Part shown: in pieces, positions 3,022 through 31,972 of the stretch | Numbering within the stretch: the stretch's first letter is position 1 | How the letters are laid out: each line of letters begins with the position of its first letter | IMG/VR virus record: IMGVR_UViG_3300028898_000107 | Source: a virus | DNA length: 52,349 bases | Direction: 5' to 3' (one strand) | Notes under the pieces: generated by a model | The model's database searches: none | Told to the model about the DNA's origin: nothing | What the model saw: the letters and a program-made list of their open reading frames with translations, nothing else | Position numbers and translations under genes: made by a program

Positions 3022-3344
3022 CCACCTTCGAGAAGCTGGGGCTGGCTGGAGTCATCTTCATTCTGGGAGTAGCCTCTGGCTGGCTAGTTCATCAATGGAA
3101 GAGCGACTCTGAACAGTTGTCCGCACAATCGGCCTCTGAGAAGGCCTATCGGAAGGCGGCAGAAAGGGCCGAGGCCCTCGGACAGTCCCTACAGACTACG
3201 CTTGACCGGATCGGAGACAAGAGGCTCTCATCCACTAAGGAGATATTCCATGAGACTACCAAGATTGAGTACCGTTGTTTGTTGCCTGAGTCTGGCCGCT
3301 TGCTCTACAACAGCGCCGTTGCCTCCAGCCCCGGCAGCCCTTAA
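3018..3344 (+). CDS. i-spanin (Rz-like)
   Basis: ATGA overlap with the holin candidate. N-terminal TM segment (LGLAGVIFILGVASGWLV), coiled-coil periplasmic part, and C-terminal YRCLLPESGRLLYNSA typical of Rz proteins. Confidence 0.8.
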   Translation: MTTFEKLGLAGVIFILGVASGWLVHQWKSDSEQLSAQSASEKAYRKAAERAEALGQSLQTTLDRIGDKRLSSTKEIFHETTKIEYRCLLPESGRLLYNSAVASSPGSP

Positions 3345-3492: not shown

Positions 3493-3766
3493 GAATCCAC
3501 GGAAATCCCTTCCTTACGGGTTCCCAAACACTGATGAGGAAGTCTCTCTCCTGATGCGGATCAATTGAAAAAGGGTATCCGATCACAGTCGGGATCACAG
3601 AGAGATTCGGGTTGGAGAATAAGAAAAGGGCCTTCTTAGAAGCCCTAGCCTGGCAGTACCCCTGTGCGGAGAACTTCACGAGCATCTCCGGCTCATAGTA
3701 ATACTTCCTCACATGCTCTGAACGAGCCCGCCACATCTCCTCACTTAGACGGTCTAGCAAGTCCAT
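3452..3766 (-). CDS. hypothetical protein (last gene of leftward unit)
   Basis: AAGGAGGG precedes ATG 3766. 104 aa. Its 3' end converges on and overlaps the o-spanin gene by 41 nt. Confidence 0.65.
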   Translation of the reverse strand: MDLLDRLSEEMWRARSEHVRKYYYEPEMLVKFSAQGYCQARASKKALFLFSNPNLSVIPTVIGYPFSIDPHQERDFLISVWEPVRKGFPWIPTGPARPPTVSKP

Positions 3767-6275: not shown

Positions 6276-7721
6276 TCAATCTTGAAGTTTCTTCAAGATG
6301 CTCTTCACCAGGTCAAACCCGTCTCGAACCGATCCCAGTATCCCCTCATCAACCGTACCCCTAGCCACCAGGTGGAGTAGGGACACTGATCCCCCACTCC
6401 TGGCGATCACTCGGGCCTTGGCCTGCTCATAGTCAATCCCGCTTTGGGTGTAGCTGTGGAAGATGAGGGTACGGGCTCGGCTCAGGTCAATTGAGATCCC
6501 CGCTCGCTGCTGTACCACACAGACGTCTGCTCGTCCGTTCATGAAGGCCTTCTTTGAATCCTCTCGCTCGGAGTTCTTCATCCCTCCCCGGATAGAAGTT
6601 GAGCTTCGTCCTTGTTTTTTCAACAGGCCCAGGATGGCGTCTAGCTCATACCGGAATTTGGCTATGATCACCAGGGGACAGTCCTTAGGGTACTCCTCCA
6701 GAAGCTCGGAAAGGGCGTCTAGGCGGTCCTTTCCTAGGGATTGGTTGTGGACTACAGAGCAGTCATCCGGATCTCTTAGAGGGAGGAATCCGCCTGCTAT
6801 CTGCTGTAGCCTAAGCGCCTGGGTTAGGATGATGGAGGCGGAGACTTCCTGATCTCTAACCATTGTCTTGAGCTCTTCCTCCATTTCCAGGTAGTGCCTC
6901 AGGGCGGGATTCGTCAGGTCGAAGTAGAAGTCCTGGACTTGCTCGACTGGAAAACCCCCCGCCTGCTCACGGTCCAGCATAAAGGCAACGGACTGGATCT
7001 TCTCGTTCATCTCCTCCAGCCGATGGAAGCTTGCCGGCTTGTGGCCTCCGAAACCCCATGACCTAACATACCGATTGAGGAATCCCTCCCCTTCGTGTTT
7101 ATCATACCGATCATGCCAGATGGTCCCGAAGATACTCGGATCAAGAAATTTGTATTGAGAGAAGGCATCTGTGGGCTTGGACATGAAGGAGCCGGTCAGT
7201 ATGTTGCGGTACTTCGCCCTTCTTCCTAGGGTATGTAAGGCCCCTGACTGTTTGGAAGCGTGGTTCTTAAACCGATGGGATTCATCCACGGTCACCATAC
7301 AGGGATTGGATTTGTAGAGCCACTTCTTGATACGCCAGGTGGCCTCCGGGTTCATGATCATGATATGTAACTTCCCAGGGATAGGCTTGAAGGACTTCAT
7401 GGAGAGCTTTCTCTCATCTGCCTTCCCCTCCAGGATGGTCACCTCGTGTGGAAGGTCTAGCGTTGCACGGATCTCATCTTTCCACACCTCCTTGGCAATA
7501 GAGGGACAGACCACAATCCACAGGTCAATCTGCTTTCTCTTTCTACGATAGCCCGCGACGGAGATGGCCACCCGAGTTTTCCCTAGGCGGGGGGCCATGA
7601 GTAATGCGAAGTTCGGGTGCTCGACCCCGAATTGAGCAGCTCGTAGCTGATAGCCCCGTAGAGTCCCTTTGATCCCGAACCTCTCTTGGACCCGCTTAGT
7701 CAGTGAGTGCTTTGGGGGCAT
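6276..7721 (-). CDS. SNF2-family DEAD/H helicase
   Basis: LRGYQL, MAPRLGKT (Walker A), TVDESHRFKN (DExH) and C-terminal helicase motifs. Start is uncertain (ATG 7721 or 7760). Confidence 0.85.
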   Translation of the reverse strand: MPPKHSLTKRVQERFGIKGTLRGYQLRAAQFGVEHPNFALLMAPRLGKTRVAISVAGYRRKRKQIDLWIVVCPSIAKEVWKDEIRATLDLPHEVTILEGKADERKLSMKSFKPIPGKLHIMIMNPEATWRIKKWLYKSNPCMVTVDESHRFKNHASKQSGALHTLGRRAKYRNILTGSFMSKPTDAFSQYKFLDPSIFGTIWHDRYDKHEGEGFLNRYVRSWGFGGHKPASFHRLEEMNEKIQSVAFMLDREQAGGFPVEQVQDFYFDLTNPALRHYLEMEEELKTMVRDQEVSASIILTQALRLQQIAGGFLPLRDPDDCSVVHNQSLGKDRLDALSELLEEYPKDCPLVIIAKFRYELDAILGLLKKQGRSSTSIRGGMKNSEREDSKKAFMNGRADVCVVQQRAGISIDLSRARTLIFHSYTQSGIDYEQAKARVIARSGGSVSLLHLVARGTVDEGILGSVRDGFDLVKSILKKLQD

Positions 7722-8031
7722 ACTTGGACCCGTGTTCTTTGAACCAAGCCTTAGCCTCATCTAGGGTCTTGAACTCTGCCTTGGTCATCTTAGCAGTCCA
7801 GGGACAGTTACCCCCGTGACTTCGCTCACGGTAATCCATCACCCGGATCTTGAGGGGTTTATGATTGCCGATCTTCACGTCCGGAGGATAGTACCCATCC
7901 TCACAGATGATATGACAGGCTGGGTGAGACTCTCCTCCGGAGTCTATCCAAGCTGCGAAGGGCCAGCCCCTCTGTTCAAAGGAACGATACTGACCTGTGG
8001 GCTTGGGAGACACCCTCCACACTAGTTTCAT
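7696..8031 (-). CDS. hypothetical protein
   Basis: GAGGAG precedes ATG 8031. ATGA coupling to the upstream gene. 111 aa. Confidence 0.65.
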   Translation of the reverse strand: MKLVWRVSPKPTGQYRSFEQRGWPFAAWIDSGGESHPACHIICEDGYYPPDVKIGNHKPLKIRVMDYRERSHGGNCPWTAKMTKAEFKTLDEAKAWFKEHGSKYAPKALTD

Positions 8032-8576
8032 GATAAGCTCCTCAGTAACTCCCGGATGGAGGAGGCTTCCTCTGGTGTCTCCCAAGCCCATCCTCCTTGA
8101 GGCTTCTCAGCATGTCCACGGAGGAGCTTACGGGCCTTTGCAGGCTCTATCCCCAGTTCCTCACAGATACCCGCCAGGGTAAGAGCTCCGGTGGCCCCTG
8201 TGCCCTTCATAGGCCTCTCGGGAGTTTCTTCCTCAAGGACCGTTCCCAGCCCCAGGAAGACCCGAAGTTCACGCTCGGCCTTAGGGCTCTTGGACAGTGT
8301 GGAATCCCACATGACCTGAGCCACTCGAAGCGGGTCCTGATTTATGGGAACGAGGGGGTAGTAGATCCTCTTGACCGCAGGGTCACTGACTTCACCCTCG
8401 TTGACTTTGTAGATCCGATACTCTCCCTCTTCTTTAGGGACCTTGATGACATCGATGATCCCGTCTTCCATGTTCAGGAAGAAAGATCCTGCGGCTCCCT
8501 CCCGAACCATCAGGTGGACCCGAGTCTTGTCCCTCATGAAGACTCTGGAGGTGAAGTTGAGCTTTAGGGCTCCCAT
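8028..8576 (-). CDS. hypothetical protein with the same C-terminal module as the 5017..5460 product
   Basis: AGGAG precedes ATG 8576. The C-terminus LTLAGICEELGIEPAKARKLLRGHAEKPQGGWAWETPEEASSIRELL aligns with IGLEALAKEFKTTPVALRRKLRNSEVSKPDSGVWAWKDGSRELAAVRKLL. Confidence 0.65.
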   Translation of the reverse strand: MGALKLNFTSRVFMRDKTRVHLMVREGAAGSFFLNMEDGIIDVIKVPKEEGEYRIYKVNEGEVSDPAVKRIYYPLVPINQDPLRVAQVMWDSTLSKSPKAERELRVFLGLGTVLEEETPERPMKGTGATGALTLAGICEELGIEPAKARKLLRGHAEKPQGGWAWETPEEASSIRELLRSLS

Positions 8577-11730: not shown

Positions 11731-11759
11731 ATTATAACCCAAATGGGTAGGAGTTAAAA
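11731..11759 (-). promoter_or_regulatory. candidate promoter TTTTAA-N17-TATAAT
   Basis: Reverse complement is TTTTAActcctacccatttgggtTATAAT, in the 50-nt gap between the polymerase and exonuclease genes. Confidence 0.4.
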
Positions 11760-14258
11760 CTCCCACTTCTCCCCAATACCCCATGGACCTACCTCAAAAT
11801 CCGCCACCAGGGGGACGGTCATCTTGATCTTGAATACCGTCAGCAGTTGAGGATCCTCCATGATACCTTTGACCTGGGGTATTATCTCACCTAAGTACTC
11901 CGTCCTGATCCACATGAGGATGGAGTCGTGGACCTCTCCCACAATCCTCAGTTGCTCCGGGTCGAAGGTGTCATGTATCTCCACCATGGCCATCGCCTTG
12001 AGGTCTCCTGACCCGAATCCTTGAACTGGACTGTTGATGGCCTGGCGCTCAGCCTCCTGTTGAATGGTCTTGTCAATACTATACACCCCTGGGAGTCTAC
12101 GCAGTCTTCCGCTTAGTGAGGCTACCTCTCCGAACAGTCTCACGGTTCTTCGCATCCTTTCGTGCCATGAGGACAAGGAGCTATAGACCTCAAAGAATCT
12201 CTCTCGGTATTTCTTGGACTGCTCATCGGAGAAGATCACTCCGTAGTTGTCTCGGGCATAATCCTTGAACTTCTTCCACCACATCCCATACAGGAAGCCG
12301 AAGTTGACGGGCTTGCCCATCTTCCGTTGTTCTTTGGTGAGCTTCCCGGGATCTATCCCTGTTATCTCAGAGGCGGTGGCGGAATGGATGTCTCCGCCAG
12401 TCTGGAAGATCATCATCATCCTTTGGTCTCCGGATAGCATGGCCGCTAGCCTCAGCTCTATTTGAGAATAGTCAGCTACCACCAGTGTCCACCCCGGAGG
12501 AGCGGTGATGTGGGACCTGATGGAGGGATCTCTCGGGACCTGGTGAAGTCGAGAGGCATAGCGCCCTGTGACCGTCCCATGCAGTTTTGTGGATAGGTAT
12601 AGGTATGGGCCGTGCATCAACTCCTTCCATCCGAGAACATAGGTGGATAGATTCTTCTCCACTCCTCGGATCTTCACCATCAACTCAGCCACAGGAGACT
12701 GGTCCTTTAGTCTCATCAGGACCGACTCCGAGGTGCTGGGCTCTCCCTTAGGAGTCTTTTCCAGAATGGGTAGTCCTAAGGCCTCAAACAAAAAGCCTCC
12801 TACTTGAGCAGGAGAACCCCAATTTACCTCATCAACTCCATTGTCCCTGGCGATCTCATTCAGCTCACAGAGCAATTCGTCTCTCTCATGGATGAGCCTC
12901 TTCTCGGTCTTACCCAGTAGAGAAAGATCCACATAGAGGCCATTGGCCTCGATACTCTCGAACATCCGGGCGGATCTCATGACCAGCTGATAGAACAGTC
13001 GGCGGAGGGAGTGGTTTTGAAGAATCCTCTTCCTGAAGATATAGTAGAGCTTTAGGGTCCAATAAACGTCTTCGCATCCGTAACGATAGAAGGGCTCCAG
13101 TTCACCTAGCCCCAATTTGGTTTTCAAGTCGACGTCGTAGGCCGGAGCATCGCATTCAGCTACGGCTACTTCCTTGAGCCCATGAGGGCTGTTCTCATCC
13201 AAGGTGTGATGGGCCAGCATCCCATCGAAGTCCAGGAAGAACTTTACTCCATAGACCTTAGTTAGCCACCGGTTGTCGAATTTCCCGTTCCAGGCTACCG
13301 CCTTGAGCTTTAGTTCCCTTTGAAGGTCCACTAAGGTTTCGATGAACATCCTCTGCTGAGAATGCTTTCCCTTCCATGGGGAGTCCCTAACCTCTAATGG
13401 GATGGAGAAGTTTCTCCCTGAAGCCAGTCCTATCTGAAGGGAGTTGATAGCGGACGGTCCTTCAAATCCTTCTCTACCAAACTTCACCTTAAAGCGAGGA
13501 GCATTCTCATCCAGTCCTGTGGTCTCACAGTCGAAGGAGAACTCAGGGCTCTGGGAAAACTCCTCGATGAAGGAGTTCCATTGTCCTAGAGTCCGGATGA
13601 CCTCGTAGTGTATCGGGTCTTGAACTAGGTTATCTCCTCTCACCAGCTTTCCAAATCTCATCAGATCTCCCCTAAGGGCCGGAAGCTTGCTGGGATCTCG
13701 TAGAGCCATGGCCGGATGGAAAGTGGGGAAGAGGGTGTAGCCGGGCTGTTCGATTGGCTGGCCATGTAGCTCGGTGATCTTCCCTTTATGGAGACTCTTG
13801 AGAGCACTCGCCCCTAGAGAGAGAATGAACTGAGGGGTAACGGAATGAATCTCCTTTGTCAGGTACTGCTTACACACCTTGAGCTCAGAGGCCGATGGGG
13901 AGCCCCCCTCCGGCGGCTTACACTTCACGGAATGGGTGATATAACAGTCGGATAGTTCTACCCCAGCCTCCTCTAGAAGCTCCCTTAGGAGCTTACCTGG
14001 CGGGCCTCCCATGAGCTTTCCTGTGGAGTCTGCTGCCTGAGTGGGGGCCTCTGTCACCACCATGACGCTAGCCCTTGCGGGACCTTGACCCCACATGCAG
14101 ACGGTCTCAGCGGACTCCCATAACCCACACTGGCTGCAGTTAGGGTCTCTCTCCTCAGTGTGACGAGTCAGACGTCTCTTGTTTGGTGAAGCATTCAACG
14201 ATGACTCCTGAGGACCGGAGGAGCTCAATACCTTCCGTTTTACGGTATGGGGTTTCAT
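11754..14258 (-). CDS. family-4 uracil-DNA-glycosylase domain fused to family A DNA polymerase (3'-5' exo + pol)
   Basis: N-terminus CSQCGL...MVVTEAP...KCKPP...TFHPA (UDG4-like). Then an exonuclease domain (FDCETTGL), followed by pol motifs DYSQIELR, RKMGKPVNFGFLYG and VHDS. Start is uncertain (ATG 14258, or TTG 14198 after AGGAG). Confidence 0.85.
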   Translation of the reverse strand: MKPHTVKRKVLSSSGPQESSLNASPNKRRLTRHTEERDPNCSQCGLWESAETVCMWGQGPARASVMVVTEAPTQAADSTGKLMGGPPGKLLRELLEEAGVELSDCYITHSVKCKPPEGGSPSASELKVCKQYLTKEIHSVTPQFILSLGASALKSLHKGKITELHGQPIEQPGYTLFPTFHPAMALRDPSKLPALRGDLMRFGKLVRGDNLVQDPIHYEVIRTLGQWNSFIEEFSQSPEFSFDCETTGLDENAPRFKVKFGREGFEGPSAINSLQIGLASGRNFSIPLEVRDSPWKGKHSQQRMFIETLVDLQRELKLKAVAWNGKFDNRWLTKVYGVKFFLDFDGMLAHHTLDENSPHGLKEVAVAECDAPAYDVDLKTKLGLGELEPFYRYGCEDVYWTLKLYYIFRKRILQNHSLRRLFYQLVMRSARMFESIEANGLYVDLSLLGKTEKRLIHERDELLCELNEIARDNGVDEVNWGSPAQVGGFLFEALGLPILEKTPKGEPSTSESVLMRLKDQSPVAELMVKIRGVEKNLSTYVLGWKELMHGPYLYLSTKLHGTVTGRYASRLHQVPRDPSIRSHITAPPGWTLVVADYSQIELRLAAMLSGDQRMMMIFQTGGDIHSATASEITGIDPGKLTKEQRKMGKPVNFGFLYGMWWKKFKDYARDNYGVIFSDEQSKKYRERFFEVYSSLSSWHERMRRTVRLFGEVASLSGRLRRLPGVYSIDKTIQQEAERQAINSPVQGFGSGDLKAMAMVEIHDTFDPEQLRIVGEVHDSILMWIRTEYLGEIIPQVKGIMEDPQLLTVFKIKMTVPLVADFEVGPWGIGEKWEF

Positions 14259-26986: not shown

Positions 26987-27367
26987 ATGTCTCGAGGCTC
27001 ATTCAAGAAAGGCGACAACCGGATCAACCGCACTGGCCGTCCAGTCGGTTCCAAGAATCGTGTGAAGTATCTCACGAACGAGGAACGGATGGCCATCGTC
27101 AAGAAGGGCGATTTGACCCCGCTGCAGTTCATGCAGTCGATGGCGATGGACGAGACTCTTGATCCGGCACTGCGTTTGAAGGCTGCCTCTGATGTGGCTC
27201 CGTATCTCCACCGCAAGAAGCCTGTGGCTATTGACGGCGGTGAGGGCAAGCCGTTGACCGTTCTATCGGCAGAGAAGCTGGCTGCCATGAGCAATGAAGA
27301 TCTCGGGGCTCTGAATGCGGCATTGATCAAACTGGGGGCTGGCAGTGGGGAAGAAGATCCAACTTGA
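26987..27367 (+). CDS. terS: terminase small subunit (DUF5681-like N-terminus)
   Basis: FKKGDNRINRTGRPVGSKN motif. Immediately upstream of the large terminase gene and overlapping it. Confidence 0.65.
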   Translation: MSRGSFKKGDNRINRTGRPVGSKNRVKYLTNEERMAIVKKGDLTPLQFMQSMAMDETLDPALRLKAASDVAPYLHRKKPVAIDGGEGKPLTVLSAEKLAAMSNEDLGALNAALIKLGAGSGEEDPT

Positions 27368-28712
27368 CTTCAGCCCGCCCAGGAGGAAGCGCACTCCTCT
27401 GGCTGACCCGAAGTTAACCTACTCCCTGCTGTCTAACCTGAGTCAAGAAGACATCCGATTACTGCAGGCAGAACTCAAACGACGGAGGGCGGATAGCTCT
27501 TCCCTGGTATTGAACCCCGAGTCTTCGTTCTATCCCCTGTGTGGAGCCCAGGCAGACTTCAAGGTCTTCTACGGTGGACGCGATTCGGCGAAGTCCTGGA
27601 CAGCAGCAGAAGCTGCCATCCGCAGAGCCCGTACACGCCGCACCAGGTTCCTGTGCACCCGCGAATACCAGGTATCTATCAGGGACTCGATTCACCGGCT
27701 TCTAAAGGACACTGCCGAGCGTCTGGGCGTCTCCCACGAGTTCAAGATCACGGACCGGGAGATAACCCACATCAAGACGAAGTCCGAGTTCTTGTTCAAG
27801 GGCCTGCACCATAACACGGACGAGATCAAGTCCACGGAAGGCATCGACGTCTGCATCGTTGAAGAAGCGCACTTCACTGAAGATGATTCTTGGGAACTGT
27901 TGATCCCGACCATTCGCAAGGAAGGTGCCGAGATCTGGGTGCTGTTCAACGTCACTGACGAAAAGACGGCCACTTACCAGAGATTTGTGGTGAACCCTCC
28001 GCCAGGCGCGATCGTCGTCAAGGTCGGATACGAGGACAATCCACACCTGTCGGAACGCTCGAAGCGGGCGATCGAGCATCTCAAGACTACGGATTATGAG
28101 GCCTACCTGCATGTCTATGGGGGCCACCCGAAGAAGACTTCTGACGCCGCTATCCTGAAGAGGGTTCGGGTCGAAGCCTTCGATGATGAACTGTGGAAGC
28201 AGGCTGAGCGCATCCATCTGGGCGCGGACTTCGGGTTCGCTGCCGACCCCAGCACATTGATCCGGTCATTCATTATCGGTCGGAAGCTCTACATCGAGCA
28301 CGAGGCGTTCGGCCATAGTGTGGAACTCGACGAGATGCCTCAGCTGTATGACTCGGTTCCCGGGTCTCGGGACTGGCCGATCAAGGCGGATTCATCAAGG
28401 CCGGAGACCATCAGCCATTTGAAGAGCAAGGGATTCAAGATCTCGGCCGCTGAGAAGTGGCAAGGGTCGGTAGAGGATGGGATCACCCACCTGAATGCTT
28501 TCGAGCAGATCATCATCCATCCACGGTGCAAGAACATCGCCGAAGAGGCGGTCTTCTATCGGTTCAAGGTCGACAAGGTCACCGGAGAAGTACTGCCCGT
28601 GATCGTCGATGACTGGAACCATGGATGGGATGCAGTGCGCTACTCCTTGGACGGGTACATTCAGCGAAAAGGCAACCTGGGCGTCTGGGCGAAATTGGGG
28701 AAACAACGGTGA
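27345..28712 (+). CDS. terL: terminase large subunit (PBSX/Terminase_3-like)
   Basis: Walker A-like YGGRDSAKSW, CTREYQ, Walker B VCIVEEA, and a C-terminal nuclease domain with DW.HGWDA. GTG start at 27345. Confidence 0.85.
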   Translation: MGKKIQLDFSPPRRKRTPLADPKLTYSLLSNLSQEDIRLLQAELKRRRADSSSLVLNPESSFYPLCGAQADFKVFYGGRDSAKSWTAAEAAIRRARTRRTRFLCTREYQVSIRDSIHRLLKDTAERLGVSHEFKITDREITHIKTKSEFLFKGLHHNTDEIKSTEGIDVCIVEEAHFTEDDSWELLIPTIRKEGAEIWVLFNVTDEKTATYQRFVVNPPPGAIVVKVGYEDNPHLSERSKRAIEHLKTTDYEAYLHVYGGHPKKTSDAAILKRVRVEAFDDELWKQAERIHLGADFGFAADPSTLIRSFIIGRKLYIEHEAFGHSVELDEMPQLYDSVPGSRDWPIKADSSRPETISHLKSKGFKISAAEKWQGSVEDGITHLNAFEQIIIHPRCKNIAEEAVFYRFKVDKVTGEVLPVIVDDWNHGWDAVRYSLDGYIQRKGNLGVWAKLGKQR

Positions 28713-28894
28713 GCAAGAGGTACGAGAAGAATCTGGAGTTCGAAGGACTCACTACCGCAGAATTCGCCCAGCGCCTCGGGGTTCCCGTGTGGAAAGTGAG
28801 GTATCTGGTTGAACGGAAGAGGATCATCGGGATCTGTCGACACCCCCTGTCTGGCAAGCTGTACTTCAACGAGAATGCAAGAGTGATTGACTGA
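28709..28894 (+). CDS. small HTH protein
   Basis: GTGA overlap with the terL stop. LTTAEFAQRLGVPVWKVRYLVERKRI. Confidence 0.55.
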   Translation: MSKRYEKNLEFEGLTTAEFAQRLGVPVWKVRYLVERKRIIGICRHPLSGKLYFNENARVID

Positions 28895-28978
28895 ATGACA
28901 ATGATGGGGGCTTCCACTCCTTCTCCCTGGTTGGTGGCTGAGGCTCCTCAGCATCGGGAGTCCCCTTCATTGTCATTC
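28893..28978 (+). other. long nested hairpin immediately 5' of the tRNA
   Basis: GAATGACAATGA (28893-28904) pairs with TCATTGTCATTC (28967-28978). This is extended by GGGG/CCCC. Inner palindrome CTGAGGCTCCTCAG at 28938-28951. Confidence 0.6.
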
Positions 28979-28981
28979 TAG

Positions 28982-29054
28982 CGCGGAGTAGCTCAGTCGG
29001 AAGAGCGGGAGACTCATAATCTCTAGGTCATCGGTTCAAGTCCGGTCTCCGCAA
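28982..29054 (+). tRNA. tRNA-Met (CAT), initiator-like acceptor and T arm
   Basis: Manual cloverleaf: CGCGGAG-TA-GCTC-AGTCGGAA-GAGC-G-GGAGA-CTCATAA-TCTCT-AGGTC-ATCGG-TTCAAGT-CCGGT-CTCCGCA-A. C1:A72 mismatch. Followed by CCC, so the CCA end is not fully encoded. Confidence 0.85.
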
Positions 29055-29195
29055 CCCCCTAACAGGTGAAAGCTCGGCCATAAGCTGAGGGCTAATCGTC
29101 CACGGTGCAGCGGAAGGTATCTCCCCCTTCTGGCTACATCTGGGCGTTGTCAAGTCGGAGATTAGCACCGGCCACCTGACCCTATCGAGGAAACC

Positions 29196-30590
29196 ATGTC
29201 GAAGAAGAGCATCGTTCGGACGACTCAAGCTGCCCTGACCCAGGAGAAGAAGATGAGGGCGAAGGATAGCTTCGTCAACTTCGCTCACAATCTGGGCATC
29301 GGAGCTGACAACCCTATGACCTCTTCATCATATGGTTTCAACCCGATCACCCGCAACAGAACGCTGCTCGAGTGGGTTCATCGCGGTTCCTGGCTAGGCG
29401 GAGTGGCCATTGACGTAGTGGCCGACGATATGACCCGAGCTGGGGTCTCTCACAAGGGTGAACTCAAGCCAGGAACCATCGAGGATCTCGAGGAAGAGGC
29501 AGTTCGCCTCGGAGTTTGGGAGACCCTCAACGACTCTGTCAAGTGGAGTCGGTTGTATGGTGGCTGCATCGCAGTGATGCTGATAGATGGCCAGGACCTG
29601 AGCACACCGCTTCGTCTCAACACCATTCGCAAAGGGCAGTTCTGTGGACTGATGACGCTTGACCGCTGGATGGTCGAGCCCAGCCTCAACGACCTGGTCA
29701 CCGAGCTCGGTCCTAACCTGGGCCTGCCGAAGTACTACACCGTCACCGCTCAAGCTCCTGCCTTATCCCGTCAGAAAATCCACTATAGCCGATGCATCCG
29801 GCTAGAAGGCATCAAGCTGCCATACTGGCAGAGACTGATGGAGAACCTGTGGGGCTTGTCTGAGCTCGAACGTCTGTATGACCGGATGATCGCTTTCGAC
29901 TCGGCTACCACTGGCGCTGCTCAGCTGGTTTACAAGTCCTATATCCGGACTTACAAGATCAAGGATATGAGGGAGGTCGTAGCCACGGGTGGACCTGCTG
30001 CCGAAGGACTGGTCAAGTATGTGGACATGATGCGTCGCTTCCAAGGGATCGAGGGAATGACCTTGATCGATGCTGAAGACAGTATGGAGTCCTCCACCCA
30101 CGGTGCCTTCTCTGGTCTATCGGATGCCCTGGTGCAATTCGGCCAGCAGCTCTCTGGGGCGTTGCAGATCCCGTTGGTTCGACTGTTCGGGCAGAGCCCC
30201 GCAGGCTTCAGCTCTGGCGACTCTGACCTGCGCAATTACTACGACAACATCAAGCAGAAGCAAGAGAAGCAGCTGCGGGTGGGAGTCACGAAGGTCTATC
30301 GAGCACTGGCCGCATCCAGGGGGGTTGACCTGCCGGACGGATACCGACTCGAGTTCAATTCCCTGTGGCAACTCAATGATGAGCAGAAGGCCGCTATCGC
30401 CTCGAGCACCTCGAGTGCCATCTCTGCTGTCGAAGGTTCTGGGGTGATCGACCGTGCAACGGCCCTGAAGGAGCTCAAGCAGTGCAGCACGGTCACGAAC
30501 ATCTTCTCGAACATTACCGACGAAATGATCCGCGAGGCGGAAGGCGAAGGTCCTCCAATACCAGATGATGTGCTCCCTACTGACGAATGA
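29196..30590 (+). CDS. portal protein (DUF1073-like)
   Basis: 464 aa. It is the first large gene after the terminase genes, with an acidic C-terminus. Confidence 0.75.
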   Translation: MSKKSIVRTTQAALTQEKKMRAKDSFVNFAHNLGIGADNPMTSSSYGFNPITRNRTLLEWVHRGSWLGGVAIDVVADDMTRAGVSHKGELKPGTIEDLEEEAVRLGVWETLNDSVKWSRLYGGCIAVMLIDGQDLSTPLRLNTIRKGQFCGLMTLDRWMVEPSLNDLVTELGPNLGLPKYYTVTAQAPALSRQKIHYSRCIRLEGIKLPYWQRLMENLWGLSELERLYDRMIAFDSATTGAAQLVYKSYIRTYKIKDMREVVATGGPAAEGLVKYVDMMRRFQGIEGMTLIDAEDSMESSTHGAFSGLSDALVQFGQQLSGALQIPLVRLFGQSPAGFSSGDSDLRNYYDNIKQKQEKQLRVGVTKVYRALAASRGVDLPDGYRLEFNSLWQLNDEQKAAIASSTSSAISAVEGSGVIDRATALKELKQCSTVTNIFSNITDEMIREAEGEGPPIPDDVLPTDE

Positions 30591-31341
30591 TGCTTCAACC
30601 GCAGAGCTTCGACGGTTAGCCCGTCAACGGTTCGCGAAGGCGCATCGGCTCGAAGCCTCCTACCTGCGGCAACTGCAGGGAGTGGTTCGGCAGATCGACG
30701 CCATCGTCAAAGGGATGGCCCCGCAGGGAGTGGTTCATGATCTGCCTGGGATACAGCGAGTCCTCAACCAATACTCGGAGACCATCCGTCCTTGGGCGAA
30801 GTCTGTGGCTGAGAGGATTCTGGCCGAGATCTCGCGCAGAGATGAGGCGGCCTGGCATGAGTTAGGGAAGGAGACCGGACGAGCCCTGCGCAAGGAGATC
30901 CAGTCTGCTCCCACAGGAGAGGCGCTGCGGATCCTCCTTGACGAGCAAGTGACGTTGATCACCAGCCTGCCGACAGAAGCCGGCCAGAGGGTGCATAGGC
31001 TGACCCTGGAGGCGATCGCCGACAGTAGTCGGGCGAAGGAGATCGCGAAGGACATTCTGCGAACCGGAAAGGTCACAGAGAGCCGTGCAAAGCTGATAGC
31101 TCGGACCGAGGTCGCCAGGACTGCAGCAGGTCTCACCCAAGTTCGAGCTGAGCATGTGGGGATTGAGGCCTATATTTGGAGAACCAGTGGAGACGTGGAT
31201 GTTCGAGACAGCCATAAGAAAATGAATGGAAAAGTAGTTCTTTATAGTCAACCTCCAGAAGTAGACCCGGGTAAGTTTTACCATGCTGGAACCTTTCCCA
31301 ATTGTAGATGTTATCAAGAACCCATCCTCCCGAATGAGTAG
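30565..31341 (+). CDS. Mu F-like / SPP1 gp7-like head morphogenesis protein
   Basis: ARTEVARTAAG...DVRDSHKKMNGKVV...FPNCRCYQEPI motifs. Confidence 0.8.
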   Translation: MMCSLLTNDASTAELRRLARQRFAKAHRLEASYLRQLQGVVRQIDAIVKGMAPQGVVHDLPGIQRVLNQYSETIRPWAKSVAERILAEISRRDEAAWHELGKETGRALRKEIQSAPTGEALRILLDEQVTLITSLPTEAGQRVHRLTLEAIADSSRAKEIAKDILRTGKVTESRAKLIARTEVARTAAGLTQVRAEHVGIEAYIWRTSGDVDVRDSHKKMNGKVVLYSQPPEVDPGKFYHAGTFPNCRCYQEPILPNE

Positions 31342-31972
31342 AGTCTCCTTCTTGTATAAGATAGATTTTCCAAATGGGAAAGGTTATATTGGAATATCCA
31401 TAGACCCTCTTCGACGATGGAAGACCCATCTGAGGAGGGCAAAGAGGGAATCATCCCTTCCAGTGCACAATGCCTTACGTAAATTTCCCGAGGCCGCTTT
31501 CAAAGTGCTCGCTAAAGGTGAACTGGAGTATATACAAGAATTAGAGATTAAGGCCATTGCTCTGTTTGAAACCCTAGTCCCGAAGGGATATAATTTGGGA
31601 CTCGGCGGAACCGTTGGGCCTATGTTGAACCCGCTAACCTCAGCAAAAGTCTCAGCTTCTAAGATGGGACACTTCGTCTCTGAGGAGACTAGGAGAAAGC
31701 AGTCATTAGCACAACTGGCCAGATTTGCTAAGCCTGGGGCCATCTCCGAGGAGACCCGAAGAAAGCTCTGTGGAAGAGTCCCTCCCCTAAAAGGAAAGAC
31801 TCATTCTGAAGAAGCTAAGGATAAAATAAGGGCCAAAAGGGCGCTTCAGGTTATGTCGGGAGAGTCTCAACGTCAACTGAATATACGACGTAGAGAATGG
31901 ATAGCTAGCACGGGATTTACTGGCTGCTTTCAGAAAATCACCAAGGCTATGATGGACTCAACCGATGAATAA
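31334..31972 (+). CDS. GIY-YIG homing endonuclease with NUMOD3-like repeats
   Basis: FLYKIDFPNGKGYIGIS...R...H...ALRKF...E (GIY-YIG core). Three SEETRRK/SEEAKDK repeats. Lower GC. Overlaps both flanking genes. Confidence 0.8.
   Translation: MSRVSFLYKIDFPNGKGYIGISIDPLRRWKTHLRRAKRESSLPVHNALRKFPEAAFKVLAKGELEYIQELEIKAIALFETLVPKGYNLGLGGTVGPMLNPLTSAKVSASKMGHFVSEETRRKQSLAQLARFAKPGAISEETRRKLCGRVPPLKGKTHSEEAKDKIRAKRALQVMSGESQRQLNIRRREWIASTGFTGCFQKITKAMMDSTDE

Follow-up and report, generated by a model that had tools for sequence, protein, structure and literature searches.

A tRNA gene with a CAU anticodon, an initiator-like acceptor end and an elongator-like body lies between the terminase and portal genes of a phage from a bioreactor metagenome, and it raises the question of what kind of tRNA this is and what use a phage could make of it within a late operon. 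The window (the whole stretch of DNA that was analysed, 52,349 nucleotides; IMG/VR record IMGVR_UViG_3300028898_000107) originates from one bioreactor-metagenome study, and relatives of it are present in wastewater runs.

Position and anatomy of the tRNA

The tRNA(CAU) gene occupies positions 28982–29057 (+). It is reported by ARAGORN as tRNA-Met(CAT) at 28982–29056 (+) and is matched by the Rfam model RF00005 over 28982–29054 (63.6 bits, E 1.5e-11), with pair 1:72 marked as non-standard. Its upstream and downstream neighbours, within one operon, are the genes of the large terminase subunit TerL (27345–28712, +; Pfam Terminase_3, 1.8e-37, and Terminase_3C, 4.7e-11; PHROG terminase large subunit) and of the portal protein (29196–30590, +; Pfam Phage_portal_3, 4e-97; phrog_146, 6.7e-126). 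A small terminase-like ORF (26987–27367) precedes TerL, and an ORF of 61 aa (28709–28894, +) is winged-HTH-like on sub-cut-off Pfam matches (Rv2175c_wHTH, E 2e-4; HTH_17, E 3e-3). ARAGORN, Rfam and the Pfam/PHROG context agree in this respect with an earlier note, made from the sequence alone, which had placed the tRNA in the late operon between the terminase/HTH genes and the portal gene.

The cloverleaf is complete and is a chimera, with an initiator-type acceptor end on an elongator-type body. The acceptor, CGCGGAG/CUCCGCA, has a C1xA72 mismatch followed by G2:C71, C3:G70, G4:C69 and G5:C68, with A73 as the discriminator. The D stem (GCUC/GAGC) carries the elongator-type pair C11:G24, and the anticodon stem (GGAGA/UCUCU) is composed of G27.U43, G28:C42, A29:U41, G30:C40 and A31:U39, so that of the initiator 3-G:C signature G30:C40 alone is left. 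AGGUC forms the variable loop, and the T arm reads AUCGG-UUCAAGU-CCGGU. The 3′ end (29055–29057) encodes CCC rather than CCA, which is unremarkable because L172, a diverged relative, encodes CCA. C11:G24, the reduced 3-G:C stem and the CCC can all be read directly from the DNA as the earlier note had described them.

Bacterial tRNAfMet of the E. coli metY/metZWV type has in common with the phage tRNA the CAU anticodon, C1xA72, G2:C71, C3:G70, G4:C69, G5:C68 and A73. Most of these features (G2:C71, C3:G70, G4:C69, A73 and CAU) are invariant in a set of 49 initiators, all of which (49/49) also have the same anticodon loop; the AGGUC variable loop and G26 are found in 84–96% of them, and a canonical initiator present in two Pseudomonadota genomes (L245/L246) has an identical T stem. 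The body differs, however, with C11:G24 in place of the A11:U24 of tRNAfMet and a GCUC/GAGC D stem that occurs in 0/49 initiators, and the three G:C pairs 29:41, 30:40 and 31:39 (or their natural form au/GC/GC) are found neither in the window tRNA nor in that of L172. Furthermore, acceptor pairs 2–7 are the same as in alphaproteobacterial elongator tRNA-Met, the AGGUC loop with G26 is also found in tRNA-Asn genes and the T arm is class-ambiguous, so that C1xA72 on that acceptor is the only unequivocal initiator hallmark. The initiator-like features listed in the earlier note are thus all present, but the acceptor pairs, the variable loop and the T arm do not single out an initiator.

Initiator, elongator-Met and Ile2 models were built for this analysis; their training sets were limited to genes of Pseudomonadota and initiators from IMG/VR, and the elongator-Met set was almost entirely alphaproteobacterial. 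Under the covariance models, by which true members separate by 20–60 bits, the tRNA scored 76.7 bits as an initiator (101.5 for the independent initiator L300), 67.8 as Met (a training member reached 106.3 and an independent CAU tRNA 86.9) and 72.0 as Ile2 (98.2 for a member), initiator being the best class by 4.7 bits. The profile HMMs gave 38.6, 40.5 and 51.0 bits, respectively, against leave-one-out means of 70–80 for true members. The initiator HMM score lies above the elongator maximum (34.5) and below the leave-one-out minimum of true initiators (57.9), the Met score is below the member minimum (66.3), and the Ile2 score (51.4 for the body alone) falls between the leave-one-out minimum (39.4) and mean (70.1). 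The tRNA is therefore intermediate, with standard membership claimed by the models in no class; the earlier note would have given up its chimera had covariance models placed it plainly with the elongator or Ile2 tRNAs, and the scores do not refute it in this way.

Flanking RNA structures and the relative L172

The tRNA is preceded by an 86-nt nested hairpin (28893–28978, +), identified by its fold, its rank among inverted repeats and its conservation in L172. It starts at the UGA stop codon of the 28709–28894 ORF, and 3 nt separate its end from the first position of the tRNA. The outer stem has 12 bp; across a U/U mismatch it continues into a second stem of 10 bp, which includes G.U pairs, and the two enclose a small apical hairpin. 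The whole is thereby larger than the 12+4-bp stem that the earlier note had drawn at this stop codon. The hairpin has a minimum free energy of −48.6 kcal/mol (shuffles, −28.0 ± 3.0; z = −6.9; 0/200 as stable) and ranks first among the inverted repeats of the whole window. In L172, 23/23 positions of the 3′ arm and 21/23 of the 5′ arm are identical, compared to 68.9% identity in the adjoining HTH gene. No U tract occurs 3′ of the hairpin, no intrinsic terminator or sigma-70 promoter-like site was found near the tRNA and the hairpin, and an Rfam search of the hairpin and spacer at a permissive threshold returned no family (one meaningless miRNA match at E 7). We propose that the hairpin acts as a processing element or as 3′-end protection for the upstream mRNA. 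A 28-codon ORF runs over it (28895–28981, +) and is probably not a gene; +1/−1 indels in L172 shift the frame, with a stop after ~15 codons, and a coding role for the hairpin was rejected because of this broken frame.

The 138-nt spacer downstream of the tRNA (29058–29195, +) appears to be a structured tRNA 3′ trailer and portal leader. A 6-bp long-range stem (~29063–29068 with 29173–29178) closes its fold in both the window and L172, and its 3′ end is the portal ribosome-binding site. Between these two sequences, the only ones compared, the closing stem and three inner pairs have changed on both sides, and the folding z-scores of the two are −2.1 and −2.0.

In E. coli, the metY-nusA-infB transcript contains an initiator tRNA together with mRNA, and hairpins cut by RNase III serve to separate the two. 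The phage locus is similar in having a tRNA within a protein-coding operon and beside a long near-perfect hairpin, but it differs in that the hairpin precedes the tRNA and the operon is one for packaging, and cleavage of the hairpin is putative.

L172 retains the hairpin, the tRNA, at its positions 6288–6363, and C1xA72, with acceptor pairs 2–5 unchanged. The tRNAs of the window and L172 differ at eight stem positions, and these changes amount to four compensatory pairs (6:67, 7:66, 28:42 and 29:41) with none disruptive, which indicates that the tRNA is under selection. Pairs 29–31 of the anticodon stem are au/GC/au in the window and GC/GC/au in L172.

No CAU tRNA was found at the equivalent site in 27 portal relatives (51–80% aa), one of which (L020) carries a pair of tRNAs with CUA anticodons ahead of the portal gene, and the two closest TerL relatives (79–81% aa) have neither tRNA nor hairpin at the site. 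As these closer terminase relatives are without the tRNA, the hairpin, tRNA and 138-nt spacer form an insertion, which we take to be an acquired cassette on the basis of these comparisons. The 61-aa HTH ORF predates it; its homologue in L172 is 75% identical, and in L178 the ORF at this position (33% identical, pairwise E 2e-7) is directly followed by the portal gene. A relative contig from wastewater has other letters in place of 28660–28920 and 28946–29149. Searches of IMG/VR and JGI metagenomes with exact words of the tRNA and the hairpin gave no match. A looser outer-stem pattern matched once, in an unrelated iteron-like region (L302), and this was judged to be chance; the sole run labelled as RNA-Seq matched only generic tRNA pieces of other organisms.

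Possible functions of the tRNA

Our preferred reading, which is a tentative one, is that of a methionine-accepting, formylatable tRNA that acts at initiation and is excised from the late transcript. The charging, formylation, use at initiation and processing route that we infer would run as follows. The CAU anticodon most likely carries no modification, so that host MetRS would charge the tRNA with methionine, and the presence of C1xA72, G2:C71, C3:G70, G4:C69 and A73 at the acceptor end would lead to formylation of the Met-tRNA by the host formyltransferase. The major Fmt element combines the 1x72 mismatch and pairs 2:71 and 3:70 (PMC6265465), and weak or absent 1–72 pairing suffices for efficient formylation (PMC5393177). 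Formylation would bar the tRNA from EF-Tu and channel it through IF2 into the P site of the ribosome. In the E. coli P site it is G30 of the middle pair that is crucial, and growth is sustained by initiators with au/GC/gu, au/gu/au, first-AU or third-AU stems (PMC5389676). Initiators with a reduced 3-G:C stem exist naturally in mycoplasmas and alphaproteobacteria (au/GC/GC and GC/GC/gu) and as engineered E. coli mutants (PMC5389676). They share with the phage tRNA the middle G30:C40 and three consecutive purine:pyrimidine pairs, which are enough in E. coli, but they retain an initiator body where the phage tRNA has an elongator D arm, and the exact au/GC/au is not among the stems listed. By E. 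coli genetics, three purine:pyrimidine pairs around a central G30:C40 would be the minimal part of the 3-G:C element, and its retention could allow the tRNA to serve as an additional initiator, weak yet usable, that is produced late in infection.

The tRNA would be transcribed inside the terminase-to-portal late message, with no promoter of its own, and be cut out by RNase P and 3′-end nucleases. The upstream mRNA would then carry the hairpin at its 3′ end and the portal mRNA the spacer at its 5′ end, each structure protecting the new end, and the hairpin may also serve as an RNase III site.

A number of points count against this initiation reading. Of the three classical initiator hallmarks the tRNA lacks two, A11:U24 and the full 3-G:C element, and the results on reduced 3-G:C stems in E. 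coli come from a true initiator body and not from an elongator body. The TilS type, the Fmt and the IF3 stringency of the host of this phage may also differ from those on which the reading draws, and a number of features point to Ile2 instead, as set out below. If the tRNA is nevertheless formylated and initiates, it would represent a natural test of the minimal bacterial initiator identity set, with the 1x72 mismatch and G30:C40 sufficient on an elongator body, and the supply or protection of initiation would join codon compensation and anticodon-nuclease evasion among the uses of phage tRNAs.

Alternatively, though this is unlikely, the tRNA could be a dual-use or plain elongator tRNA-Met, partly formylated or unformylated, that serves AUG in elongation in the manner of the single mitochondrial tRNA-Met. 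Its D arm, positions 8–9 and anticodon stem are of elongator type, the L172 anticodon stem is present in 20% of the elongator-Met set, and E. coli is viable on one tRNA-Met doing both jobs under partial formylation (PMC6265465). Alphaproteobacterial elongator tRNA-Met has acceptor pairs 2–7, the D stem and A73 in common with it and is itself weakly paired at G1.U72; however, this G.U and the A/U at position 32 are replaced by C x A and C in the phage tRNA, and the variable loop and T stem differ. Elongators pair 1:72, whereas C1xA72 is strict in both relatives and across the class described below, and the elongator-Met models score the tRNA 26–38 bits under true members. AUG is moreover a single codon, so no obvious gain in codon compensation would follow, and in E. 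coli fast formylation is reported to exclude such tRNAs from elongation (PMC6393288).

A smaller chance is given to a tRNA-Ile2, whose C34 would be converted to lysidine by host TilS and which, charged with isoleucine, would read rare AUA codons for the phage. Such genes are common in phages, for example in P1, and those of E. coli (ileX) and P1 (trnI) share with the tRNA the D arm, the anticodon loop and the pairs G27.U43, G30:C40 and A31:U39. The tRNA has an Ile2-type anticodon arm, including the CUCAUAA loop, and its anticodon stem, G27.U43 included, is identical to that of the genuine bacterial Ile2-type genes L211 and L213. The best matches to positions 8–65 among 401 Pseudomonadota genomes are likewise Ile2-type genes (82–86% identity), Ile2 is the best profile-HMM class, and AUA is fairly frequent in the phage (a crude ORF set contains 147, or 9.2 per 1000 codons), so an AUA decoder would be useful. 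The resemblance is partly generic, since the body is equally near to tRNA-Asn (88% identity over positions 8–48), and the acceptor stem is wholly different (mean identity 0.23–0.25). All 18 of the 18 Ile2-type genes in the set have a paired 1:72 and C5:G68, and most have C4:G69, whereas the phage tRNA has neither of the latter pairs and leaves 1:72 unpaired, which would weaken EF-Tu binding. C4-G69 and C5-G68 are required by E. coli TilS (PMC2500205), and G3:C70 and C4:G69 by that of B. cenocepacia, where inversion nearly abolishes activity (PMC11947777); C3:G70, G4:C69 and G5:C68 of the phage tRNA are the inverse of the pairs that both these type I enzymes need. Methionine rather than isoleucine identity is thus the best reading of the acceptor pairs, by rules taken from two enzymes from which the host TilS may differ. 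Should the tRNA be Ile2 or dual-use after all, a 1x72 mismatch would be tolerated in elongation. Among the roles put forward in the earlier note, the initiator supplement remains the best, and Ile2 is disfavoured by these published TilS determinants.

It is improbable that the tRNA is a decoy for a toxin attacking the initiator acceptor end, or a substitute for initiator tRNA cut by VapC. Phage tRNAs have been proposed to counter tRNA-targeting defenses (PMC10264068), and enteric VapC, according to work cited in PMC4105405, cuts tRNAfMet between A38 and C39, where the phage tRNA has U39. E. coli initiators with a defective 3-G:C element are usable when the native initiator is scarce (PMC3017606). 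On the other hand, no tRNA-targeting system is known for the host, and the idea would also require the tRNA to initiate, which extends the preferred initiation reading and does not replace it. A decaying remnant or integration-site fragment is scarcely credible, as departure from every standard class and the CCC end are outweighed by the complete cloverleaf, the CCA of L172, a site in mid-packaging operon with no integrase seen among ~30 ORFs scanned, and the covariation with L172, which already contradicts it.

Recurrence on mobile DNA

The tRNA belongs to a recurring, informally defined phage-borne class of C1xA72 CAU tRNAs on an elongator body. The class was defined by initiator-type first five acceptor positions, C1xA72, A73, a GCUC/GAGC D stem, CAU, an incomplete 3-G:C element and location on mobile DNA, all of which are found in the window tRNA. 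Other members occur in the Rhizobium phages V1VFA-S and RHph_X66, at the IMG/VR loci L034–L041 and in the Mu-like prophages L043 and L049; the invariance of acceptor and D arm within the class is partly by construction, as both were fixed in the search patterns. Over 185,579 species genomes the pattern was matched in 11 only, nine of them in many-tRNA arrays (25–31 tRNA genes in 3/4 arrays scanned) and two in the head modules of Mu-like prophages, and phages, prophages and tRNA arrays appear to account for almost all of the class. Given this confinement, the class is a concrete target that could be examined at low cost with the initiator-knockout assays already established in E. coli.

U39 and a distinct anticodon stem are shared by the window tRNA and most class members. 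It is conceivable, although doubtful, that phages carry a stripped-down initiator, made up of an elongator body, a formylation end and G30:C40, whose U39 and distinct stem would keep phage initiation going when host tRNAfMet is destroyed or blocked and which would become usable once the native initiator is depleted, with the RNA structures of the packaging operon letting the message survive excision.

The idea that such hybrid tRNAs always lie in late operons was ruled out, as the L082 and L035 copies are in replication modules, and late expression is therefore no general rule. No flanking hairpins like that of the window were present at the Mu-like prophage copies, and the hosts of the two Mu-like prophages also carry canonical initiators.

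Anatomy and class of the tRNA

ARAGORN identified a tRNA-Met(CAT) at 28982-29056 (+) as the sole tRNA of the 52-kb window. It was also matched by the Rfam tRNA model (28982-29054, 63.6 bits), which flagged pair 1:72 as non-standard. Direct reading of the sequence gave an acceptor stem of CGCGGAG/CUCCGCA with C1 facing A72, discriminator A73, a GCUC/GAGC D stem (C11:G24) with a D loop of 8 nt, an anticodon stem of GGAGA/UCUCU (G27.U43, G28:C42, A29:U41, G30:C40, A31:U39), an anticodon loop of CUCAUAA, a variable loop of AGGUC and a T arm of AUCGG-UUCAAGU-CCGGU. The anatomical claims that the earlier note had made for this tRNA were all correct by ARAGORN, Rfam and direct reading. A73 is followed by CCC in the window and by CCA in L172, a diverged relative, so the CCC end carries no message beyond the need for a CCA-adding enzyme.

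To place the tRNA among known classes, reference tRNA genes were collected from 401 + 121 Pseudomonadota genomes and from IMG/VR. In BLAST comparisons with the 401 genomes, its body (positions 8-65) was 82-86% identical to Ile2-type genes, some with an identical anticodon stem, its 3′ half (32-75) 84% identical to canonical initiators and its full length ~75% identical to alphaproteobacterial elongator tRNA-Met. Class models for initiator, Met and Ile2 tRNAs (profile HMM and covariance model) were purpose-built from the collected genes. With the profile HMMs the window tRNA scored 38.6/40.5/51.0 bits (initiator/Met/Ile2) and that of L172 38.9/47.0/52.8, against leave-one-out means of 74.5/79.6/70.1 bits for true members; the elongator maximum with the initiator HMM was 34.5 bits. 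With the covariance models the scores were 76.7/67.8/72.0 bits (window) and 77.7/71.0/73.9 (L172). The controls separated the three classes cleanly, with 101.5/61.6/40.2 for an independent initiator, 69.8/106.3/81.7 for an elongator Met tRNA and 55.8/74.6/98.2 for an Ile2 tRNA. The top class of the window tRNA therefore differs between methods, being Ile2 with the HMM and initiator with the covariance model. The covariance models do not score it as a standard elongator or Ile2 tRNA, and no class model claims it. Its Ile2 HMM score falls within the leave-one-out range of true Ile2 genes (minimum 39.4 bits) but below their mean; judged by these scores it is a true intermediate among initiator, Met and Ile2.

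Its acceptor, G26 and variable loop are initiator-like, positions 8-9 and the D stem (found in 0 of 49 initiators) are elongator-like, the anticodon stem is Met- or Ile2-like and the T arm is ambiguous. The intermediate scores bear out the chimeric make-up proposed earlier, but the acceptor pairs and the AGGUC loop, which had been offered as initiator marks, proved non-specific. Alphaproteobacterial elongator tRNA-Met has identical acceptor pairs 2-7, differing in its G1.U72, and tRNA-Asn genes share the 8-nt D loop, G26 and the AGGUC loop, with 88% identity over positions 8-48. The tRNA thus has a single unequivocal initiator hallmark, C1xA72 on this acceptor. Two Pseudomonadota genomes (L245, 47-120, −; L246) have initiators with U1 facing U72 rather than C1/A72, which are otherwise canonical (A11:U24, three G:C pairs).

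Insertion and conservation of the hairpin-tRNA block

The window DNA derives from one bioreactor-metagenome study. The tRNA follows a small-terminase-like ORF (26987-27367, +), TerL (27345-28712, +) and a 61-aa ORF (28709-28894, +) with weak winged-HTH matches, and precedes the portal gene (29196-30590, +); further neighbours on the + strand encode a Mu-F-like head protein, a GIY-YIG/NUMOD3 homing endonuclease and a NUDIX protein. No promoter-like or terminator-like site was seen near the tRNA, and the simplest reading is that it belongs to the late packaging transcript.

Neither a CAU tRNA 5′ of the portal gene nor a homologue of the HTH ORF was found in 27 IMG/VR portal-protein relatives (51-80% aa identity), and the two closest TerL relatives, from JGI metagenomes (79-81% aa), lack both tRNA and hairpin. 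In L178, a terminase relative, a homologous HTH ORF (33% identity, E 2e-7) is followed ~10 nt downstream by the portal start. Given the relatives without the block and this HTH-portal junction, the HTH gene is old and a hairpin-tRNA-spacer block of ~300 nt (28893-29195) was inserted after it. In the portal relative L020 (58% aa; ~9-kb IMG/VR contig), the position of the window's CAU tRNA, directly upstream of the portal gene, is occupied by two CUA-anticodon tRNAs (3161-3233 and 3560-3634), which may be amber suppressors.

The block was found in one diverged relative, L172, a 42.8-kb contig from an NCBI metagenome assembly reached via the HTH protein. Identity to the window is 68.9% in the HTH gene, 64.8% in the spacer and 87.7% in the tRNA. 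All eight tRNA stem differences pair up as four compensatory double changes (6:67, 7:66, 28:42, 29:41) and the ninth lies in the D loop, while C1xA72 and pairs 2-5 are unchanged. Because the stems covary and the mismatch is untouched, the tRNA is a functional RNA whose mismatch has been selectively kept.

The hairpin (28893-28978) consists of a 12-bp stem, a U/U mismatch, a 10-bp stem and an apical region containing a 5-6-bp hairpin, and is the strongest inverted repeat of the window (MFE −48.6 kcal/mol, z = −6.9; 0 of 200 shuffles fold equally well). Its 5′ end lies at the stop codon of ORF 28709-28894, as the earlier note had observed while making the structure too small, and its 3′ end lies 3 nt short of the tRNA. 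In L172 a 28-codon ORF spanning it is shifted out of frame and cut short, so the hairpin acts as RNA or DNA and not through a peptide. Its arms match L172 at 23/23 (3′) and 21/23 (5′) positions. Unlike the covarying tRNA stems, the hairpin stems have no substitutions, which in this comparison of two sequences hints at sequence-specific recognition. The spacer (29058-29195) folds in both genomes into a domain with a 6-bp closing stem, and this stem and three further inner pairs have changed on both sides; with z ~ −2 over two sequences, support for the structure is weak.

Predicted function

An unmodified CAU tRNA is a substrate of MetRS. The function that we infer for the tRNA, as the most economical reading, is that it would be charged with Met, then formylated, and would be able to enter initiation with an efficiency below that of tRNAfMet. 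The main Fmt element is the 1x72 mismatch together with 2:71 and 3:70 (PMC6265465), and for formylation it is enough that 1-72 pairing is not strong (PMC5393177). Within the 3-G:C signature, what is crucial in E. coli is G30 in the middle pair; growth is sustained by initiators whose stems are au/GC/gu, au/gu/au, first-AU or third-AU, but not by one with ua/cg/au (PMC5389676). The stem is au/GC/au in the window and GC/GC/au in L172, with three purine:pyrimidine pairs in each.

A dual-use or elongator Met tRNA is the nearest rival to this initiation role, with the elongator-like D stem in its favour and the C1xA72 mismatch against it. The Ile2 (lysidine) role that had also been put forward draws on the likeness of the body to Ile2-type genes and on the 147 AUA codons of the phage (9.2 per 1000, crude ORF set), but is disfavoured by the TilS determinants. 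E. coli TilS requires C4-G69 and C5-G68 (PMC2500205), and that of B. cenocepacia G3:C70 and C4:G69, inversions of which nearly abolish activity (PMC11947777). In the window tRNA the pair at each of these three positions is inverted; the published determinants argue against lysidine formation, and an Ile2 tRNA would require a host TilS indifferent to the acceptor. A decoy or resistant substitute for initiator tRNA has in its favour the U39 of the window tRNA, enteric VapC being cited in PMC4105405 as cleaving tRNAfMet between A38 and C39.

Related hybrid tRNAs and other features of the genome

A phage-borne tRNA with initiator-type features is of an already-known kind, and the window tRNA is a further variant. 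To this the window adds covariation evidence for selection on the mismatch, proof of insertion of the hairpin-tRNA-spacer unit, a three-way classification with scores, and a flanking hairpin that is conserved. No description of the hybrid design was found in the literature; a phage-tRNA paper remarks only that tRNA-fMet tends to be absent from phages of enteric hosts (PMC10264068).

Hybrids built to this design, 84% identical, occur in Rhizobium phages V1VFA-S and RHph_X66, and others on several IMG/VR contigs. With looser search criteria, CAU tRNAs carrying this acceptor came to at least 83 distinct genes in IMG/VR; among the matches listed 51 were canonical and the remainder departed at 11:24, the 3-G:C signature or both. 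Because the search patterns fixed both acceptor and D arm, the uniformity of these two parts across the class is in part built in. A place in the late operon is no general rule, since other members lie within replication modules.

The design-specific pattern matched 11 genomes (one genome per species, 185,579 species). Nine are Pyrinomonadaceae or Acidobacteriota MAGs, with the hybrid within arrays of many tRNA genes. Of the four arrays scanned, three hold 25-31 tRNA genes in ~3.5-4.6 kb (L042:891-4814, L044:176-4746, L047:4437-7965) and one holds 13 within the stretch covered (L052:4885-8001); the fullest have anticodons for all 20 amino acids, and each of the four has one C1xA72 hybrid alongside another CAU tRNA whose variable arm is long. 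The other two are alphaproteobacterial MAGs, both with a canonical initiator, where the hybrid lies within Mu-like prophage head modules (L043:5577-5651; L049:3561-3632, −), starting at most ~10 nt from the stop codon of the head-module ORF on its 5′ side and preceding a Gp36 gene. Neither of these two copies has a strong flanking hairpin. A match to the hairpin's outer stem on an unrelated IMG/VR contig (L302:3040-3150) was attributed to chance; that site has clustered TGTCAT/ATGACA repeats and is iteron- or operator-like.

The homing-endonuclease ORF of the window (31283-31972) overlaps the end of the Mu-F-like gene and starts within a 26-nt inverted repeat whose arms are 77% complementary (31290-31385); L172 has a 73-aa ORF and no endonuclease at this site. 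No integrase was seen among ~30 window ORFs scanned. The window's other arm carries a replication module encoding a family-A polymerase with a UDG domain, ligase, ThyX, SNF2 helicase, primase and a PD-(D/E)XK nuclease. The polymerase (11754-14258, −) combines an N-terminal uracil-DNA-glycosylase-superfamily domain with a 3′-5′ exonuclease domain, and a perfect 17-nt inverted repeat, its arms separated by 59 nt, lies at 7998-8090 in this early or replication arm.
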